DNA of 61,600 nt from a virus (lineage: Duplodnaviria > Caudoviricetes), in the IMG/VR virus record IMGVR_UViG_3300025168_000088, positions 1-61,600 of that record. The stretch is one strand, 5' to 3'. Shown here one piece after another: positions 23,020-32,005 of this stretch; the stretch's first letter is position 1; each line of letters begins with the position of its first letter. The notes under the pieces are model-generated. The model did no database searches. It saw only the letters and a program-made list of their open reading frames with translations, and was not told the origin of the DNA. Position numbers and translations under genes: made by a program.

Positions 23020-23239
23020 TAAATAGTATGGTATGGTCGCCACCTTATCAATGTTTCTAAAAAAAATTACCCAAAAAAACGCATGGTGGTTGGCTGTCCC
23101 TATATGTGCCCTATACCTTGTTTTTGGCGACCTCATCGAACAAGGCGTGGCCTCAAGAGAGAGAGGGGCTACCCCCACCCGCCGAAGCGGGTGAAGGAGC
23201 GGCATCGGTTAAACCGTTTACTGTATGCGAGCGAACAAC

Positions 23240-23605
23240 TCATTCAAGGTTGCATACGGATGATAGAATATCTATCAAACCGGCTACCTTTTCTTCAAGG
23301 TCATCAATTCGACCTTGCATCTCACTGATGGTCGAATCCATCTGTGGTGTGTTTTGTTGTTCGGACAGGATAGCGTGGATTTGTTCACCAATTTTGGTGT
23401 TCATATCCAACAGTGCTCTTTGAGTGCTGTCAATTGCATCCTCAACATCAGCCACGCTGTTTTCGTTTTCCTGTATTCTCTCAATCATTGAGGCCTGTGT
23501 CTCAATGACTTCGCTCACCATAGGGTATGCGACACTGTGTGCAATGGTATGCACTGTGTCAAGCATCCCCATTGCTCGGTTCATTTGTTCTTTGTCGTAT
23601 ATCAT
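23240..23605 (-). CDS. Coiled-coil hypothetical protein
   Basis: 121 aa with heptad pattern; GGAGA RBS. Confidence 0.7.
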   Translation of the reverse strand: MIYDKEQMNRAMGMLDTVHTIAHSVAYPMVSEVIETQASMIERIQENENSVADVEDAIDSTQRALLDMNTKIGEQIHAILSEQQNTPQMDSTISEMQGRIDDLEEKVAGLIDILSSVCNLE

Positions 23606-23941
23606 TTTTCATATCTCCATTTTGTCGGCCGACTTCTTCTGTTTTCTTCGTCGGTTATTCCGACATGGGGAGCCACTACTATATCAATACTCACCGAATT
23701 ACCCCCATATTTTACATGATTTGAGTATGATTGAGGCGAGCCGTCGGTCATGGTTGAATCTCTGGGTTTGGGGGGGACTGGCCCCCCGTGTATGTATATA
23801 GTCTTATTAGTCTTATCTTAGGAAGAAAATTGCGGGAGAGAGAGCCGTAGGGAGAGAGATTCTCAAACCTACAAAACCCCAATTGAATATGCCACCACCA
23901 CCGACGGATTGAAGGGCCGTCGCCCTGCCTGTCCTACCTAC

Positions 23942-24415
23942 CTACTCAAGCAACTCAAGAAGGGCTGTGTAGGCCATGACAATACCTTCAACTTGAGTAT
24001 TGATTGAAGGGCCGGTCTTTGTCTTCTTGTATTCAGTGGTTCGCACTTCTTTCATTGGTATGAGTTCGGTCTTTGTTCTTGCTGATGCTCCGGCGCACTC
24101 GCCATGTTCTCTACCGGCTCCGGTTCGCTTGTTTGCTCCGGCCAACTTAATCGGGCCTGTAGAACGACCTAATGAGTTGCCACTGATGAGTGATTGAGTT
24201 TTCTTGACTCTATAACGGCCTGTAAGGAATGTTTCACGCTTTGCTCCTTTGGTGGTGGTTCTATCGTGGGTTTTGTCACATTCAACGGCCATTTGACCTT
24301 GAGCCTGATATTGGGCCATGTCCTTCTTAATTCTCTTGAGTAGTTGCTTCGATGCTTGAGGCTTCGCTTCATCTATTCCGTAGTGCTTCATCAGTGTTAT
24401 TATGGGGTTCGCCAT
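23942..24415 (-). CDS. Basic hypothetical protein
   Basis: 157 aa, Lys/Arg/Thr-rich; TTGATATA box about 28 nt upstream (leaderless). Confidence 0.7.
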   Translation of the reverse strand: MANPIITLMKHYGIDEAKPQASKQLLKRIKKDMAQYQAQGQMAVECDKTHDRTTTKGAKRETFLTGRYRVKKTQSLISGNSLGRSTGPIKLAGANKRTGAGREHGECAGASARTKTELIPMKEVRTTEYKKTKTGPSINTQVEGIVMAYTALLELLE

Positions 24416-24656
24416 GATACTCCGAGGGAGTGGTAGTATATCAACTGCCCTATGGCTCGTTTACCGTCTGGAGTAAGCAGGGTTTGCCCCACGCATGGCC
24501 CCGCCGCCGGTGTAAGACTGTTAAATAGAAAATGCGCTTGGGGAGAGATACTCGGCGCTTGGCCTCTGTAGTTATATTAGTCTATAGTCTTAGGAAGGAA
24601 CCACGACCGAGAGGGGTCTTGGGAGAGAGATTTTGACTTGTCCAAAAGTCCAAGTT

Positions 24657-24911
24657 TTCGATGCACTCCGCTCATGCTTTGCCGTTGATGTTTGAGGTTA
24701 TGAACCCTTTGTTTTTGTTGTTTTTCGGCTGTTTTCATTTGGTGCCGGCCTGATGAGCACTTTTTCTCTATTCGATGGACTGCGTGACCGATGGCCCCTA
24801 ATTCGCTCGGATTCGTGAAATGTGCGTTTTTGGGCTGTTTTGGGGGGTTCGGCGGCCTGTGTCAAGCCGACGATTTAGGGCACCCTAATTTCGGCTATTC
24901 GATGCACTGCG
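24657..24911. repeat. Three spaced direct repeats TTCGATG(C/G)ACT(C/G)CG in the divergent intergenic region
   Basis: Copies at 24657, 24771 and 24898. Confidence 0.7.
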
Positions 24912-24949
24912 AGCCATTTTTGTTATAGGTGGGTTCATATACTATACCC

Positions 24950-26090
24950 CACTATGACTGTTTGCTCAACCAACAACACCGGTTGGAGCCGAAGCGAAAC
25001 TTGCCGAGAATCGGTCTACCCTTACGGGAGCCGTCGGCGCTCATACGGCCCTTGATTCATCAAGGGTTCTTGAGGCACCACAGACCGAAAACACTTGATT
25101 GAGTCCTTCGGAAAACCCAGAATATCGGGTATATGGAGGGACTGCGTAGCCTCGCACTGCCTCTCTTTGAGAGGTGGGGTAGAGGACTCTTGAACCCGTT
25201 TCTAAATACCTATTAGACGCATATTGAAATAGCGAAGGGATGGTCGTGCCCCCAAAGGGAATAACACGGACATATGACAGACAGTGTGAGAATGACTCGC
25301 ACTTCATCGGAGTTGCTGAAGACGCCACCAATGGACTTTCATCCCTATCGACGGGATGCCGGTTCGGTGGCTACATTAGGCACTGAAAGCATCAATCAGC
25401 GAAGGGTTGAGAAGCATCACTTCTCGACAGGGGCGACCCGACTCCCTTCAATGATGACGGCTTACAATCCAATGACAGTAGACCTAAGACCCTACTTGAG
25501 GACATATATGGCATACGAGACCGCAGTGAACATAACGGATTCATATTCCCTAAGAAGGCGGTCAAGAATCAAGGCATCAGATTCGGGTCGTGCCCGACTG
25601 ATGACACTATTTAGTAGCGAACTATGAATGACAGTGGCAAACGGTGACGGGAGCCACATTCGGATAGATTCCACGGGATTATAACTATCCCGATGCCAGA
25701 TTATCGGCTTAGGACTTCATTCATAGGGAGTATCTATGCGGGGAATAAACCGGCGGAGTGTCTATGATGCAGTGGGGGAGCGGGTGCTTTTCCGATAGGG
25801 CGAACCTCGCCCGAATCCACCCCTCTCCGATATTCTCTCCTGTGACTCCGGCATGGGTGCCTCGGCACCTATGCCCTTCATGGTCAATGACGAGCCGGCC
25901 TACGGGCCACCTCCGAGACCACATCCGATTCACACCGGTGTAGATAGAAGCAATCGCACCTCGGCTACTGCCGACTACACCAGACCCAAGAATGCGGCGG
26001 AGACTCTACCGCCAGCGAACTCTCTCCCTCAAAGAAAGAGAGCGGTTGAAAGAGACCAAGAAAAGAGAGGGGAATGCGCTTAGGCAAGGC
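24950..26090 (+). ncRNA. Putative large multi-domain structured non-coding RNA (or giant 5' leader)
   Basis: More than 20 hairpins and nested long-range helices; G-U pairs favour the plus strand; TTATAGGTGG promoter-like box at ~24923; no credible ORF. Boundaries approximate. Confidence 0.7.
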
Positions 26091-26114
26091 CCATATAAAA
26101 ACGGAGGACAAAAA

Positions 26115-28859
26115 ATGTATGAAAATGCAATAAACGGAGCAGACGGCGCAATCGGTGCGATTATCGGCATGCTATGGGTGTTTACACTCATGGGTGCGGT
26201 AGTTGTTACCTTTGCGGCCAACAGAAGAGAAGAAACAATGCGTATGCGTGTTGGTATTGAAATTGAGGCAATTCGTAATGAACATGCCCAAGAAGCACCA
26301 AACACCAGTATCGCTAACTGGCTTGACACCATGCGTTCACAGCATGGTGACAAACATGTGGACAAATACTTGGCTACCTTGAAAAAGCGGCGAAGTCAGT
26401 GGATAAAAACTCGTGCTGAAAGGCGACGGGTAATACATGCCGCTCTACCACACAGTTATCGTGGTAGTAGATTCCGCATTCGTGACGAATCATGGAGTGC
26501 GGGTCAAACCACATTCTACACCAAAGTCACCACCGACGGTTCGCTGTCATCAGGTGGTTTTGAAGTCGTGTCGCACCCTTTAACAGATGGTGCACATCAC
26601 GGATGGATTGCTAAGGTATGTAATGCACTACGACACATCACACGGGTGGACCGTTCAACTGGCCTCCATGTGCATGTCGGATTGCGTGACCCCGAAGCAA
26701 GATTCGGTGACGAAGGACAAATTACCCGACGACAAGCAGTTGCGATTGCTGGCCGTGTGGCTTGGGCATATGCTCACTTCACACCCGCTTTCAACAAATT
26801 GGTTTCATCAAGTAGGCATCACGGTCAATACTGTGCGCCTGCCAACCACATGACGAACACATATCCAAACCCCGTAGAACATCAGCGGGTCGAAAGATTA
26901 CATCATGTGATGGAGATACCAGACGAACAACACGACATCAACATTCGTTATACACCATTGTCAAGTCATCCAAATGACGAAGGCTACTGGTGCGAAAGAG
27001 TGCATACCCTCACAGGTCCGGCACTTCACGAAGCAATGTATGACGCATCTCAAAATGCGGGTCGTTACTACCACTTGAACACCAACAGTCTACTTAACCG
27101 TAACTTTGGCACTGTCGAGTATCGACAACATCAAGGCACTACCAACCCAGTGAAAATTAGTAACTGGGTCGAACTGACCTATCAGTTCACACTGGCATGT
27201 GCTGACGAGACCAACTTCGACGGAATTATGCAATACCCACCGACTCTTGAAGGTCTTTGGGCATTCATGGATTTCGCTGACGACGACCCACTCGTAGACT
27301 ACTACAACAAGCGTGCATCAGTTCTCGCTGGTTCTCAACTTATTCGGGCTTGTTCCGAGTGCGATAGCCACACCTGTGTGCACTACGAATGTGTCGGTGG
27401 AAATGACCAGCAGGTCATGCAAAACATCGGCACACACCTCGCTCCGGCGGCTTACGAGTGCGTAGATTGTGGATGTCACATCGAAACACATAATGTTGAT
27501 GCAGAAGACATGACAGCCTCATGTTATGAGTGCGACCAGTATGTCGAGGTATGTTATGCCTCCGGCTTAATTGCATCACTCGCCCTCGGCTTCTTTGTAG
27601 CCGCACCACTCGTGGGTGCAGTTGCACTGGTAGTCGGTTGCGGTATAGGTGCTATGCACGCTGGTTCAAAGAAGTTCATGGCGAAGCGGTCGTTCAAGAA
27701 GTTATGGAACGACCTCGCATCCCGTGGCGGTCAAGCGGCTGGCTTTGCGTGGCAAAAGCGTAAGGATAAGCATGTGTGGCATCTCAAGGCACCGGCGTCG
27801 TCGGTCTACCTCAAGAAGCATGTCAACAAGCACTTGGATAAGTCAACGGTATGGGCTATGGCTCACACACGATATGCAACACACGGTGTCAACAACAAGG
27901 CAAACGCACACCCGCACTTTGGTTATGACAACAAAGGTGTAGCGGTAGTGACATTAGTGCACAACGGAGTGGTTCACAACCACGATGATGTATGGCATGC
28001 ACTTGGGCGTAAGCCTACTGGCCCAGTTGACAGTGAAGCAGTTGCCGCCGCCCTTGCGGTCGGTGGTATCGAAAAGGTGGTTGAGACCTGCAATGGCTCA
28101 ATGTCACTCATATGGTCGGACACACGAGACCCGAAAGGGACACTCAAGTTCTGGTCTAATGGTGGCAACCCACTGTGTGCAGGGCGACTCGACCATCCAA
28201 ACACCGGAACAGTTGTTGTTGCATCGACACTCGACATACTCGAAAAGTCTCAAGGCTCACGCCTCAAGACTTCTTGGGCATGCACAGTCGGTCGTGAATA
28301 CACCATCGACCCAAGCGGTAGCATCACTGGTCGTGACATCAAAGGTAGTGCCGACACAGCATACGGTGCATACTCGTGGCGCACATACGCTACCCTCACA
28401 GGTGGCGGCAAGTCGAAGTCCAACAAGACTCGACAGTTGAGCGTCAAGTCCAAAAAGCCAAAGGGTAAAACCGATGGTAATGCGGATAACTGTGCAGTCG
28501 TGTTCAGTCCAACGGAGCGCAACTCCGATTGGCAATACGAATACGACGACATGTTGCTCAACGAGGCATTGTATGACGCATGGGCGGCTATGAGCATGTC
28601 TGGTTTTCCAGCAATTGACGACTATCACGGTTACGATGGTTACACACATGAAGGCGTCCGTCCAAACGGCAGTAAGTATTACCTGCCCAACTACATCTAC
28701 GGTCTACCTGTAGACCCTACCACCAACACGGACATGCAGGTCATGCTAATGCTCGGTGACTTCGACCCTCAAAAGTCCAAGTCCGACTTTGACTTTGCCG
28801 ACGAACCATACGACGACCACTGGGTGCCGACCGACCAACTCGGTAATCCACTGTATTGA
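26115..28859 (+). CDS. Membrane-anchored COOH-NH2 amidoligase (Amidoligase_2 type) - Zn ribbon - class II glutamine amidotransferase fusion
   Basis: GGAGG RBS before ATG 26115. Ligase motifs VGIEIE, DGSL, GFEVVS, STGLHVHVG, RYYHLN, TVEYRQH. GATase-II motifs CGI, RG..AAG, AHTRYATHG, NAHPH, VHNGVV, VDSE. Confidence 0.9.
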   Translation: MYENAINGADGAIGAIIGMLWVFTLMGAVVVTFAANRREETMRMRVGIEIEAIRNEHAQEAPNTSIANWLDTMRSQHGDKHVDKYLATLKKRRSQWIKTRAERRRVIHAALPHSYRGSRFRIRDESWSAGQTTFYTKVTTDGSLSSGGFEVVSHPLTDGAHHGWIAKVCNALRHITRVDRSTGLHVHVGLRDPEARFGDEGQITRRQAVAIAGRVAWAYAHFTPAFNKLVSSSRHHGQYCAPANHMTNTYPNPVEHQRVERLHHVMEIPDEQHDINIRYTPLSSHPNDEGYWCERVHTLTGPALHEAMYDASQNAGRYYHLNTNSLLNRNFGTVEYRQHQGTTNPVKISNWVELTYQFTLACADETNFDGIMQYPPTLEGLWAFMDFADDDPLVDYYNKRASVLAGSQLIRACSECDSHTCVHYECVGGNDQQVMQNIGTHLAPAAYECVDCGCHIETHNVDAEDMTASCYECDQYVEVCYASGLIASLALGFFVAAPLVGAVALVVGCGIGAMHAGSKKFMAKRSFKKLWNDLASRGGQAAGFAWQKRKDKHVWHLKAPASSVYLKKHVNKHLDKSTVWAMAHTRYATHGVNNKANAHPHFGYDNKGVAVVTLVHNGVVHNHDDVWHALGRKPTGPVDSEAVAAALAVGGIEKVVETCNGSMSLIWSDTRDPKGTLKFWSNGGNPLCAGRLDHPNTGTVVVASTLDILEKSQGSRLKTSWACTVGREYTIDPSGSITGRDIKGSADTAYGAYSWRTYATLTGGGKSKSNKTRQLSVKSKKPKGKTDGNADNCAVVFSPTERNSDWQYEYDDMLLNEALYDAWAAMSMSGFPAIDDYHGYDGYTHEGVRPNGSKYYLPNYIYGLPVDPTTNTDMQVMLMLGDFDPQKSKSDFDFADEPYDDHWVPTDQLGNPLY

Positions 28860-28916
28860 TTGTTTCTTCATCTGTTGAGACCTTCCCTTAATCCGCTGGA
28901 TTGAGGTTGCCGCCTA

Positions 28917-28960
28917 CTCTTGGGGCTTCGGCCCCTTGAGAGGCCCCCGCTGGCGAGCGG
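28917..28960 (+). other. GC hairpins downstream of the amidoligase gene
   Basis: GGGGC-TTCG-GCCCC (UUCG tetraloop) and CCGCT-GGCG-AGCGG. Confidence 0.5.
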
Positions 28961-29032
28961 TTTACAAATACGCACTCACATTCACGCCTTCGGGCATCAC
29001 ATTCCCCCACAGGAAAGGAGGTGAAAACAAAC

Positions 29033-29368
29033 ATGGATAAATACAAGCAACAAATTATGCAACTGTATGCTACGCTACTGCGTGCACACATAGCATTACT
29101 TGATGAGATATTGGATGCGGCTACAAGTAAAGCCGCACGCCGATGTGCAACCATAGCCAGTGAACAAATCTGTTCAACTGTGTATCATTTGATAGATGAC
29201 ACTGGCATTATGCCCAACAGCCACATGATACCATACATCGAAGACTTGGCACCAACAGCCGATGACTTTGATTTTGGTCTCATGGAATCTGTTCGGGATA
29301 TGGAAAAGCGAGTGTTCCCGTCGACAGTCGGCGGTCGCACTGGTTTTGGCATATACCCAAGCAACTGA
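29033..29368 (+). CDS. Hypothetical protein
   Basis: AAGGAGGTGA RBS before ATG (MDKYKQQ...). Confidence 0.7.
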   Translation: MDKYKQQIMQLYATLLRAHIALLDEILDAATSKAARRCATIASEQICSTVYHLIDDTGIMPNSHMIPYIEDLAPTADDFDFGLMESVRDMEKRVFPSTVGGRTGFGIYPSN

Positions 29369-29517
29369 TGTCTCATTGGTAATCCAGTATATCGGTATGT
29401 CGCAGATAACTCGGCAATACCGTTCCCGAAAGGGTAGCCGCACTGCCCCTCTCTTCGGAGGGGGGTGGTGCCCAACACCTCCTCTCACATCACACTCCAA
29501 CAGGAGGTATAACAAAA

Positions 29518-29628
29518 ATGGAAAACGAATGGGAATGCGGTTGCATTCAAACAGGAACAAATTGGATTCTGTGCAAAGACTGTAAGGCGGCGCGTGAGCA
29601 CCCCCTCGCATGTGCTTGTTGCCAGTAA
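29518..29628 (+). CDS. 36 aa Cys-rich microprotein
   Basis: AGGAGGT RBS; MENEWECGCIQTGTNWILCKDCKAAREHPLACACCQ (7 Cys). Confidence 0.65.
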   Translation: MENEWECGCIQTGTNWILCKDCKAAREHPLACACCQ

Positions 29629-29829
29629 GCATAATCCAAATGCCAAGCCAAAAATACCAAATGGATGACGGGCATTTTAACCCGACGGTTGAGGAACCAC
29701 CCACGATAGATGCGCAGGCGTGCGCTATACAAATACGCTTCATTTTTTTAATCAGCGAGAGGACAGTGCATACCGGCGGGGTAGGTGCTATCAATTACAT
29801 AGGGGCATAATTGCGCACGACTGGAGATG

Positions 29830-30251
29830 CTCTCTCTCCCCCCCATAGTCTTAAGACTTAAGACTAAACCACATGTGCTAAGGAGAGCGATTTTTGGCGG
29901 CGAAAAATCCAAACACTCACGCCCGCACACACACATGCGTCATACACTACTAAAATCGAGGCTCTCTATGCACATACAGTCTTAAGACTGAATCCCCCAC
30001 TGCATGCGTATTAGGAGAGCGGATTTTCACCTAAAAAAATCCAAATCAAAATGCTCATAAGGCACACACACATACACACACACGAACAGGTGAGGTTTTA
30101 GGGCATACGAAAAAGCCCCCATACAGGCGAAAAAGCGAACATATGTGCGGAAACAGGCGTAAAGCACTCCGATTACGCCAAAAAACGGGGCAATCGTATG
30201 TGCATGGGTAGGCTCACGCATCATATGCGAGTGTTTCGATTACGCCAAAAA
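29830..30251. repeat. Non-coding repeat/palindrome cluster
   Basis: GTCTTAAGAC palindromes (29848, 29979), GGAGAGC(G)GATTTT...AAAATCCAAA twice, CGATTACGCCAAAAA twice (30170, 30237), CA-rich tracts. Confidence 0.75.
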
Positions 30252-32005
30252 CCAAACACCTTATAATGCGTATGTGCGAGAACGCTCTACTTTCGCACCC
30301 GTTCCGCATACACATCCATACATGACGCATATACACACACTTACGCATAGGGCCAGCAAACAGGGGAGCAGTGACCTCTTTAAGTAGCAGGTGTAGGGGG
30401 AGAATGCTAATATAGCGGGAACCTCACATTTCACTTTGATGACAACCCAAACGGATGAAATCGAAGCGAGAGGCTCACTGAGTCTCGATAACATAAAGGA
30501 CGGCACCTATTGGTTGGCCGACGGCATTTTACGCCGGTCTGGGGCGACGAAGGGATTTTGGGTAGCCTCGCATAGAGGGACTGATGCCCTGCTTGACCGA
30601 GACCTCACGCTGTTCAACCCAAGCATCACCGGAGCCACTGTGAAAGCCATGCTTGAAGCCCCTCGAATCCTTAACCAAACTCGCACATTTTATGTGGGTG
30701 TTTGGACTGATAACTCCGGCAACCAACATCTCGACTACTCATATCATGTGGATAAGTATAACGAGGCAATGGCAATAGCAAAACACAGAAACCAACTCGC
30801 AATATGGGATATTTTCATGGGTCGTGAAGTGGCGGTGGTCGCATGAGTCCAACAGAATACATAAACAGGTTGATTGAGAAGGATAAAACCGGCACTCTCG
30901 CAAATGACATACGCATACTGAAAAGCATAGGCTGGACTGATGAGAAGTTGGCTAATGCTCAGTATGAGGTTCAAGATTTACTGGGGTTGTTCGCATGAGT
31001 GCCGTTGAAATCATGGGCTACGAAGCCGCCATCAAAAGCCCTGCCGTTTGCATGGTTACATACTGGCGCTACTTCGGTGTGGATGAGATATGTGAATGCA
31101 ATACCTGCATGGATGAACATGGGGTGAACGAATGAATCCGAGCGATAACCCCCTGTCTAAAGGTTGGTTTTCCGGCGAGATTTTCAAGCCGTCATTTGGA
31201 TTCACTCGAATAAAATTACAGTATGTAACAAGGGAAACCGCACGAGACAAGAAAGGCAACACCTACACATGGCACTCATACAAGGCATACTGGCGAAAGG
31301 ATGAGGTGAGCGAATGATTACAGCGTGGCTAATACGCATGACGATTCGATACAACAGGTGGCGATTTCAATGAGCAACGACCCAAACCACTGCCCTCAAC
31401 GCTATGAGGACATACAGGTGTGCAAAGACACATCATGTGTATGCCTACCTGCCCTGCTCGCAACGCCTCGCAAATGTGAGGATTGCGGAGTAGATGTGAA
31501 TTACTCATGGATGGGCGCATACTGCAAAGGGTGCCTACAAACAGGTTCGGGGTTGTTTGAATGAACGCATTCACTGCCGATAGAGACCGAACACTATATA
31601 TGGGGGAGGCCACCCATAGGAAAACAACGGCCAACAAACCGAAACAAGGAGAACTGAAAATGAAAACAGCAATAGATGAATTGATAGAAACGATAGACGA
31701 AAAGTTCGATGAGGTGTCACACATGCTCATCACGGATTACCCGAAGGGGGATTACATGGATGGCTACATAGCCGCCCTCGGATGGATATTGGGGTTGATT
31801 GAATGAGCGTAGCAGTAGATAGTTCAGTGTTTGCAGACTGCCCAAAGTGCGGTGCTGAAAATGATGCAGTAGACCTATGGGATGCAAACATCGAATCATT
31901 CGATGGCGACCAAGTTACAATGCGAGCCGAGCAAACATGCGAAACATGCGGCGATTCATACAGCGTCATATGGTATGCAACCATTCACTCGACGGAGGTG
32001 GAGGA

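Follow-up and report, generated by a model that had tools for sequence, protein, structure and literature searches.

A previously undescribed family of large structured RNAs precedes an amidoligase gene in marine tailed viruses

OLE, the ornate, large, extremophilic RNA, works with membrane protein partners such as OapA and is recognized by oapA/oapB/oapC-type gene neighbours in anaerobic, extremophilic Bacillota; GOLLD and ROOL are often found near tRNA genes. OLE is a large RNA that forms complexes (PMC12286853). GOLLD and ROOL, also large and 'ornate', occur in bacteria, phages and prophages (PMC12286853, PMC5737381), and their hallmark is homo-oligomeric, RNA-only assembly (PMC12286853). 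Here we describe a so far undescribed family of large (1.1–1.25 kb) structured RNAs in marine tailed viruses. Its representative occupies positions 24950–26102, on the plus strand, of a 61,600-base window, the whole stretch of DNA that we analysed, which is an entire IMG/VR marine virus record (IMGVR_UViG_3300025168_000088; estimated completeness, 96%). The RNA directly precedes a gene that encodes a fusion of an amidoligase and a glutamine amidotransferase (GATase). Homologous sequence, a covarying fold and a fixed genomic context recur in several lineages, all of them represented by loci that were selected through this gene. The locus is laid out as follows.

24434..24453, minus strand: inverted copy of the candidate promoter element, 19 nt before the leftward ATG
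24925..24944, plus strand: candidate promoter element ATAGG-N4-TT[C/G]ATATACTA, part of a 20-nt inverted repeat
24950..26102, plus strand: structured RNA of about 1.15 kb, recognized by folding z-scores, homology, length and covariation; its 5′ end is placed from the promoter box and its 3′ side continues into the mRNA
26103..26117, plus strand: Shine–Dalgarno sequence GGAGG (26103) and ATG (26115) in an A-rich tract; GGAGG or GAGG stands 7–9 nt before the conserved ATG in 17 of 17 aligned sequences
26115..28859, plus strand: gene for an Amidoligase_2/class II glutamine amidotransferase fusion of 914 aa, identified with Pfam, PHROGs and homologs; the constant neighbour of the RNA

Searches of Rfam 15 at gathering score, with a set that includes GOLLD, ROOL, OLE, HEARO, raiA, group I and II introns, RNase P, riboswitches and twister, gave no match in the 61.6-kb window and none in 12 related loci (110,708 bases). 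Membership of a known RNA family was rejected on this basis. At E ≤ 10, sn2429 was the sole match in 24400–26400 (17.3 bits against a gathering score of 50; E = 4.4) and SNORA33 (23.2 against 74) the match in 28700–32000; both are noise. A tRNA or tmRNA was likewise rejected, since neither the window nor any of 15 relatives contained one. A literature search that left most subscription journals outside found no structured RNA linked to the amidoligase–GATase gene or to these viruses.

The RNA resembles OLE in being a large, highly conserved, multi-domain RNA that travels with the gene for a putatively membrane-anchored protein. It differs in its lack of Rfam similarity, its roughly twofold greater length, its viral source and its neighbour, which is amidoligase–GATase rather than OapA. 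The neighbourhood comprises the amidoligase–GATase gene, a 157-aa open reading frame (ORF) without a Pfam family and a metallophosphoesterase gene, in a marine virus. With GOLLD and ROOL it shares very large size, a home in prokaryote viruses and a variable periphery around a conserved core; compared from sequence alone, it is longer, has no Rfam match and is fixed before one enzyme gene, and no tRNA gene lies in the present window.

We collected relatives with an alignment of 21 amidoligase–GATase proteins, which yielded 160 loci: the best 80 of 203 viral and the best 80 of 387 metagenome relatives encoding the enzyme, some contigs appearing twice. A single-protein scan of viral contigs had given no match, whereas the alignment query did recover loci; annotated phages contained no close DNA relative of the window. 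An nhmmer profile detected full-length, collinear, plus-strand homology directly 5′ of the gene in 20 of the 160 loci, corresponding after duplicate removal to about 11 lineages besides the window. Among 12 representative sequences, the distance from promoter box to ATG is 1117–1252 nt. The sole gene-independent search, with an exact 22-mer of the three-way junction described below, retrieved only the contig of relative L002 among the viral contigs; degenerate motif patterns run on the fetched loci were too narrow or too unspecific.

The RNA core evolves more slowly than the adjoining gene, as the higher identity of RNA blocks shows. Compared with L082, the closest relative, whose enzyme is 89% identical, the region is a mosaic in which core blocks are 88–99% identical and others have been replaced or deleted. 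The 90-nt block 25761–25850 is 98.9% identical, against 81% at third codon positions of the gene. The gene of the more divergent L002 retains 62% DNA identity (46% at third positions), compared with 80–84% in RNA blocks 25112–25198, 25378–25654 and 25991–26113. Between the window and L082, whole hairpins have been gained or lost as indels. L082 has a hypervariable 5′ domain (L082:1700–1830) that matches that of the distant L004 (L004:4819–4930) and not that of the window, which indicates that peripheral domains are swapped between lineages.

Folding was assessed in 200-nt segments against dinucleotide shuffles on both strands over 7 kb. On the plus strand, all 11 segments starting between 24900 and 25900 folded better than their shuffles (z −1.31 to −5.21), and the minus strand was weaker in 8 of these 11. 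Plus-strand segments starting at 23600–24700 gave z-scores from −1.13 to +2.03, with no excess in the T-rich 24400–24800. The strongest excess of the scanned 7 kb is at 23200–23700 (z to −7.4 on the plus and −5.0 on the minus strand), in and around a minus-strand ORF for a coiled-coil-like protein of 121 aa (23240–23605).

Comparative analysis resolved a fold that combines local hairpins with a core tied together by three long-range helices, LR1–LR3. Hairpins were counted with our own scripts on L-INS-i block alignments, with 500 shuffles as background. Long-range helices were evaluated by a duplex test, in which a sequence's own two segments were folded together (cognate) and compared with a segment paired with that of another lineage (non-cognate); this test was used for LR1–LR3 because helices with widely separated strands come out misaligned in MAFFT. 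The elements, all on the plus strand, are the following.

24966..24986, plus strand: first hairpin after the presumed start, GCUCAACC/GGUUGGAGC, from RNAalifold
24975..25080, plus strand: hypervariable 5′ domain, replaced among close relatives (36% identity to L082 against 88–99% in core blocks)
25094..25100 / 25567..25573, plus strand: LR1, CUUGAUU/AAUCAAG; cognate mean −7.47 against non-cognate −3.69 kcal/mol
25100..25106 / 25537..25543, plus strand: LR2, UGAGUCC/GGAUUCA; cognate −9.74 against non-cognate −4.14 kcal/mol
25141..25146 / 25522..25527, plus strand: LR3, ACUGCG/CGCAGU; cognate −7.07 against non-cognate −4.01 kcal/mol; the 3′ strand is followed by junction GUGAAC
25150..25186, plus strand: variable-length hairpin with outer CCUC/GAGG; 12 pairs, 79.5% of cells paired against 61.8% shuffled (0/500 as high), 28 double-change cells
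25283..25303, plus strand: hairpin AGUGUGAG/CUCGCACU; 8 pairs, 76.2% paired against 61.0% shuffled (0/500), with GC-to-AU compensation in L082
25324..25371, plus strand: lineage-specific inserted hairpin GCCACC...GGUGGC; block 25321–25375 is missing as a clean 49-nt unit in L082 and is missing in L002 too
25402..25448, plus strand: three-way junction with a GNRA-capped arm (GCGA); 15 pairs, 14 of them changed on both sides, in 11 sequences
25576..25603, plus strand: hairpin CAUCAG...CUGAUG, then conserved GAUGAC; by eye, the inner stem covaries and the outer CAUC/GAUG is conserved
25622..25726, plus strand: domain closed by CUAUGAAUGA/UCAUUCAUAG; strong cognate duplexes of differing sequence in the window, L082, L090 and L003, weaker ones in L092 and L004, the other 6 of 12 not recovered
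25634..25657, plus strand: GNRA hairpin (GUGA) within helix GUGG/CCAC; 7 pairs, 92.2% paired against 63.8% shuffled (0/500)
25761..25850, plus strand: most conserved block, UAUGAUGCAGU ... GAUAGG ... UUCUCUCCUGU, its motifs kept across 12 sequences
25850..25875, plus strand: 11-bp hairpin of the window/L082 lineage; all 3 pairs changed in L082 are kept (A-U to G·U, U-A to C-G, G·U to A-U)
25937..25981, plus strand: helix GGUGUAG/CUACACC in 12 of 12 sequences, in seven variants; cognate −12.93 against non-cognate −9.67
25993..26095, plus strand: 3′ hairpins with a GACUC loop, CUCUCU/AGAGAG, a UGAAAGAG loop and a UAGGCAA loop; by eye, stems vary by lineage and loops stay

The three-way junction had 92.6% of its cells paired, against 65.4% after shuffling (0/500 as high) and 36–50% when partners were slid by 1–3 columns. 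LR1, LR2 and LR3 are nested and close a domain of about 470 nt; each occurs in at least four complementary sequence versions, with a cognate advantage of 3–5.6 kcal/mol. LR1 reads CUUGAUA/UAUCAAG, CAUGC/GCAUG or AGAAC/GUUCU elsewhere, LR2 AUGUUCCC/GGGAACAU, CAGACU/AGUCUG or GCCC/GGGC, and LR3 AUUGCG/CGCAAU, AUGUC/GACAU, ACUGU/ACAGU or ACUCG/CGAGU. In a scan of 2,936 segment pairs, the pair that contains LR2 (25088–25109 with 25528–25549) ranked first, at −5.11 (background s.d. 0.84). The unpaired junction strings GGAGGGA and GUGAAC within the domain are conserved, the latter in 11 of 12 sequences. The inner stem at 25576–25603 occurs as CGGG/CCCG, GCGGG/CCCGC, GGGGG/CCCCC and AGGA/UCCU. For the first hairpin (24956–24977 with 24978–24999), cognate minus non-cognate duplex energy was −3.42, and by eye its shape is kept by different sequences in L082, L002 and L083. 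Between the window and L082, the window's centroid fold, with the hypervariable domain excluded, contains 9 compensated and 3 broken double changes, compared with 0–2 in slid controls.

The first 3′ hairpin gave a weak count (4 pairs; 4/500 shuffles as high), and pairing of the 5′ with the 3′ end was not convincing (cognate −11.68 against non-cognate −9.91). Owing to misalignment of the variable helices, the consensus that RNAalifold derived from the whole MAFFT alignment was poor and mostly unpaired; alignment A3 recovered 8 pairs, 3 of them with double changes. In alignment A5, which covers the 530-nt core, rows are shifted by one column at LR1–LR3 and are not structure-consistent, so these helices rest on the duplex test and carry no pair count.

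A preliminary description of this stretch, made from the letters alone, had proposed dense plus-strand structure in a gap without a credible ORF, G-U pairing that implies RNA and an RNA of a new kind, and all of this is borne out by the comparisons reported here, including the ORF analysis below; of the checks that it named, covariation among homologs and the Rfam search also came out in its favour. The complementary segments that it named are all present where it placed them. Comparative support now extends to GAAGGG/CCCTTC with its two inner hairpins, which is the three-way junction, to the inner stem of the hairpin at 25575–25603, to GGTGTAG/CTACACC in 12 of 12 sequences, to CTATGAATGA/TCATTCATAG in 6 of 12 sequences and to the 11-bp stem at 25850–25875, which is compensated in L082 only. 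The GCCACC/GGTGGC hairpin is an insertion missing from L082 and L002. TCGGTCT/AGACCGA (3 of 12 sequences) and GACCGC/GCGGTC (2 of 12) are not conserved, the latter also being incompatible with LR2 and LR3, and the 5′ half of AGTCCTTC/GAGGGACT is shared with the covarying LR2. Instead of the local, nested multibranch domains envisaged there, the real core is tied by long-range helices over hundreds of nucleotides.

Two modules recur beyond the positions listed. A module of about 105 nt (GGGUGGGGAGUAGCC...GGCCUUGAGCC...CCCCACCC), closed by an 8–10-bp covarying helix, is common to most of the family and to L005:5736–5842, L011, L100–L109, L153 and L154; in the window and L082 it is remodelled into another local hairpin (25850–25875). 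The GUAGCC..GCACUGCC..CUCUC hairpin module (compare 25146–25180) occurs a second time at 29425–29471, where it forms an almost perfect hairpin of 14 bp closed by a UUCG loop. This copy lies in the spacer that precedes a small ORF starting at 29519, and the module may act as a common signal for protein binding or processing.

The RNA lies on the plus strand. In all three blocks counted, the plus reading paired better than the minus reading, with 16, 5 and 10 G·U cells, and all eight one-sided changes in L082 that keep a pair create G·U on the plus strand. GNRA loops cap three hairpins (GCGA and GUGA here, GAAA in relatives) and read correctly on this strand only. These features bear on whether the region could instead be a DNA-level element, such as an origin, a packaging site or a regulator-binding site, or a drifting spacer without RNA function. 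The position at the divergent junction of two gene blocks would suit such an element, and the adjacent 24455–24925 looks like one, with repeats, palindromes and conservation without structure. But compensatory changes, G·U asymmetry, GNRA loops and helices 430–470 nt apart are meaningless for duplex DNA, and conservation exceeds that of the gene; we regard a DNA-level function as very improbable.

The adjacent 470 bp between the inverted promoter copies (24455–24925) is T-rich on the plus strand, lacks folding excess and codon-position bias, and is kept in more distant relatives than the RNA is (L003, L004, L005, L090, L092 and others). It contains a 17-nt repeat three times (24654, 24768 and 24895), the palindrome TTTAGGGCACCCTAA and TAGTCTTAGG...GGGAGAGAG, and is probably a protein-binding control or origin region.

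A hidden protein gene, standard or recoded, was rejected. Genes run leftward to the left of 24415 and rightward to the right of 26115, and the intervening 1.7 kb, between the start of the minus-strand gene (24415) and the ATG at 26115, contains only short ORFs, none of them conserved. The longest, of 117 aa (25274–25627, plus strand) and 96 aa (25041–25331, minus strand), had no Pfam match at E ≤ 0.01. All six frames contain 17–34 stops each, with all three stop codons represented, so an altered genetic code cannot rescue a gene. Among relatives, ORF positions vary and six-frame similarities are short and scattered over all frames. Indels between the window and L082 in the RNA region measure 49, 19, 18 and 1 nt, the 49-nt deletion cutting inside the 117-aa ORF. 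We also rejected a small minus-strand gene at 24580–24861, an open frame of 94 codons to which relatives show weak similarity: substitutions are even over codon positions in seven of seven comparisons and are accompanied by indels, and we therefore read it as conserved non-coding DNA.

At the 5′ end, the two 20-mers are near identical, and their exact 11-mer core occurs at those two places alone in the window. The A/T box aligned with 24934–24944 in 11 relatives reads GTTGATATACT, TTTATATC, TTTAAGG or TTTATGG. From these patterns we infer that the inverted 20-mers act as a duplicated divergent promoter and that the RNA starts about 5–25 nt after 24944. The start near 24950 that was suggested at the outset is thus approximately right, this conserved box lying just before it; the TATA-like box then placed at 24923 is not conserved.

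At the 3′ end, the hairpins stop about 12 nt before the Shine–Dalgarno sequence. ATG 26115 is the true start of the gene; in L082, 1-nt indels disrupt the open frame that lies 5′ of it. Neither a conserved promoter-like box nor a terminator-like site nor a run of five T lies between RNA and gene (24950–26115), so that a single transcript, with the RNA first and the enzyme mRNA second, is the simplest reading. The other suggestion made at the outset, a new class of large non-coding RNA (ncRNA) or a giant co-transcribed leader, is supported as an interpretation, and its two halves both stand and are not exclusive.

Glutamine-sensing structured leaders exist in marine microbes, and known riboswitch leaders are several times smaller than 1.15 kb. 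The RNA could be viewed as a giant leader that is purely cis-regulatory: it would sense temperature, a protein or a metabolite such as glutamine, and thereby set the translation or stability of the amidoligase mRNA. Like a riboswitch-type leader, it stands directly before the ribosome-binding site (RBS) of the gene for a glutamine-using enzyme (glutamine-dependent according to Pfam), on the same strand and with no promoter between, and 3′ hairpins with conserved loops lie within 12–60 nt of the RBS. Unlike such leaders, it is 5–10 times larger, matches no riboswitch model even at E ≤ 10, and has an RBS that is not visibly sequestered: the site lies in an A-rich tract and looks unpaired. In a coarse test with 22-nt segments of 8 sequences, no covarying helix over the Shine–Dalgarno sequence stood out (best cognate minus non-cognate −1.7, about 2 s.d.; background s.d. 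0.84), which would tend to argue against a switch. We consider a purely regulatory leader rather unlikely.

The gene itself offers another perspective. Four cysteines of the enzyme's cysteine clusters (C413, C416, C421 and C426) are invariant among homologs, and a hydrophobic stretch at the N terminus, read from the translation, is the basis for regarding the enzyme as membrane-anchored. Folding z-scores also tend to be negative within the coding region (26115–28859, plus strand), several 200-nt segments reaching −2 to −3.6. By analogy with OLE and OapA, the RNA may be a scaffold or partner RNA for this predicted membrane-anchored enzyme, a proposal to which we give even odds. Transcription would begin at the A/T box (24934–24944), the inverted copies driving leftward and rightward units, and would continue into the amidoligase–GATase mRNA with no promoter or terminator before the Shine–Dalgarno sequence at 26103. 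The fold, which covariation supports on the plus strand, comprises a variable 5′ domain, the LR1–LR3 domain of about 470 nt, the three-way junction, GNRA hairpins and 3′ hairpins with conserved loops. In the weakest step of the proposal, the RNA would then act with or on the cysteine-cluster enzyme as a scaffold or partner made in cis. We prefer a partner RNA over a plain on/off leader because the RNA is oversized for a switch, has an elaborate core and a constant size, always precedes one enzyme, and leaves the RBS apparently open.

Several observations weigh against a dedicated plus-strand partner of this enzyme. Over the whole length, minimum free energy is alike on the two strands (−406.4 against −407.9 kcal/mol), so energy alone gives no strand. 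The 13 further loci with enzymes about 40% identical match in the promoter region and the single ~105-nt module alone, and more distant relatives retain nothing detectable; the enzyme is therefore not strictly dependent on the RNA. Model R1, built on the three-way junction, matches 15 of 75 sources, all in the close subfamily, and neither L083 nor 59 others, which implies that the enzyme can exist without this exact RNA. The Shine–Dalgarno test also leaves no positive sign of a cis effect, and about 11 lineages, with our own alignments and scripts, underlie the helix tests. Expression data are sparse: part of the stretch occurs in 24 public runs, one of which may be the source sample; most are DNA and 2 are RNA libraries (oligo-dT, one study), each of which contributes one contig (230 and 263 nt) covering approximately 25300–25565, 95–99% alike and L082-like, with DNA in the libraries possible. 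Neither a transcript nor its strand or termini can be read from the depth and ends of assembled contigs, and uncovered parts mean nothing.

These data also bear on an autonomous, trans-acting viral ncRNA, which might serve as a scaffold, be a decoy for host proteins or defences, or self-assemble like GOLLD and ROOL, and which would merely share the promoter and perhaps be processed. Its size, conserved junctions, GNRA loops and swappable periphery are typical of large stand-alone RNAs, the 5′ domain has been exchanged between lineages, and the paralogous hairpin module 4 kb downstream (29433–29471) hints at a shared binding factor; as a weak further point, the RNA-library contigs fall within the RNA core and leave the gene uncovered. 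Set against this are the strict synteny with one gene in every RNA locus, although all loci were fetched through that gene, and the lack of a terminator-like site or T-run between RNA and gene, with no processing site identified. Such independence from the enzyme is possible, and we hold it only tentatively.

In HEARO/omega RNA with TnpB or IscB, and in group II intron RNA with its maturase, strict adjacency reflects an RNA–protein particle. The present locus likewise has a conserved structured RNA strictly next to one protein gene; it differs in that the RNA is 5′ of the gene, Pfam finds no nuclease, reverse transcriptase or maturase domain in the amidoligase–GATase, and there is no sign of mobility. 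A ribozyme or mobile RNA, whether a group I or II intron in degenerate form, a retroelement RNA or an array of self-cleaving RNAs, would fit the large core of long-range helices and the conserved junction nucleotides. However, searches at E ≤ 10 in 24400–26400 and 28700–32000, and at gathering score in 12 relatives, gave no match to an intron, ribozyme or retron family, no gene is interrupted, and no reverse transcriptase, maturase or homing endonuclease gene stands beside the RNA. The RNA lies between genes, no intron model appears at E ≤ 10 and the frame 5′ of the ATG is not conserved. We give this origin scarcely any credence.

The genome encodes a large terminase, a portal, a family B DNA polymerase, a clamp-loader-like AAA protein and a PD-(D/E)XK nuclease, among others. 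The preliminary description had spoken of an archaeal virus, which is not established: polymerase and terminase are about 23% identical to proteins of haloarchaeal and bacterial viruses alike, and bacterial bins of metagenome-assembled genomes (MAGs) contain relatives. The polymerase has its best match in a Halorubrum tailed virus (22.8% identity), with cyanophages scoring about equal, and terminase matches are mixed bacterial and haloarchaeal (22–25%). Sigma-70-like sites are rarer than in shuffles (6 against 13.2), hairpin terminators are also under-represented, and in our judgement the promoter-box variants TTTAAGG and TTTATAT resemble archaeal TATA boxes. Two full-length relatives of the enzyme gene, L162 and L163, lie on contigs of 8,966 bases and of 61,226 bases (the latter the size of a whole virus genome) that are binned in MAGs labelled Parvibaculum and Opitutales, respectively; these labels could be mis-binning or a hint of bacterial hosts. 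Genes for a metallophosphoesterase, an amidoligase and a GATase are also reported in a Poseidoniales-associated virus from a group said to lack DNA polymerase, which the present virus has; the text of that report contains 'noncoding', 'non-coding' and 'intergenic' zero times (PMC11706807). On sequence grounds, an archaeal host is possible.

RNAs of the OLE, GOLLD and ROOL type are among the rarest finds of microbial genomics, and each opened new RNA biology. The RNA described here is longer than any of these three. Its carriers are marine viruses that are abundant and uncultured, and 2% of a viral genome with little DNA to spare is given over to it. Its tie to one enzyme gene provides a concrete experimental handle. 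In a bolder and doubtful version of the partnership, this would be the first large 'ornate' RNA class of probably archaeal tailed viruses, longer than GOLLD, and the RNA would be a subunit, co-transcribed with a membrane-tethered enzyme, that binds the cysteine-cluster region of the enzyme and positions, gates or templates amide ligation at the host membrane. If that were true, it would constitute a viral ribonucleoprotein enzyme of a kind so far undescribed, and if the host is archaeal, archaeal viruses would gain their first RNA of this type.

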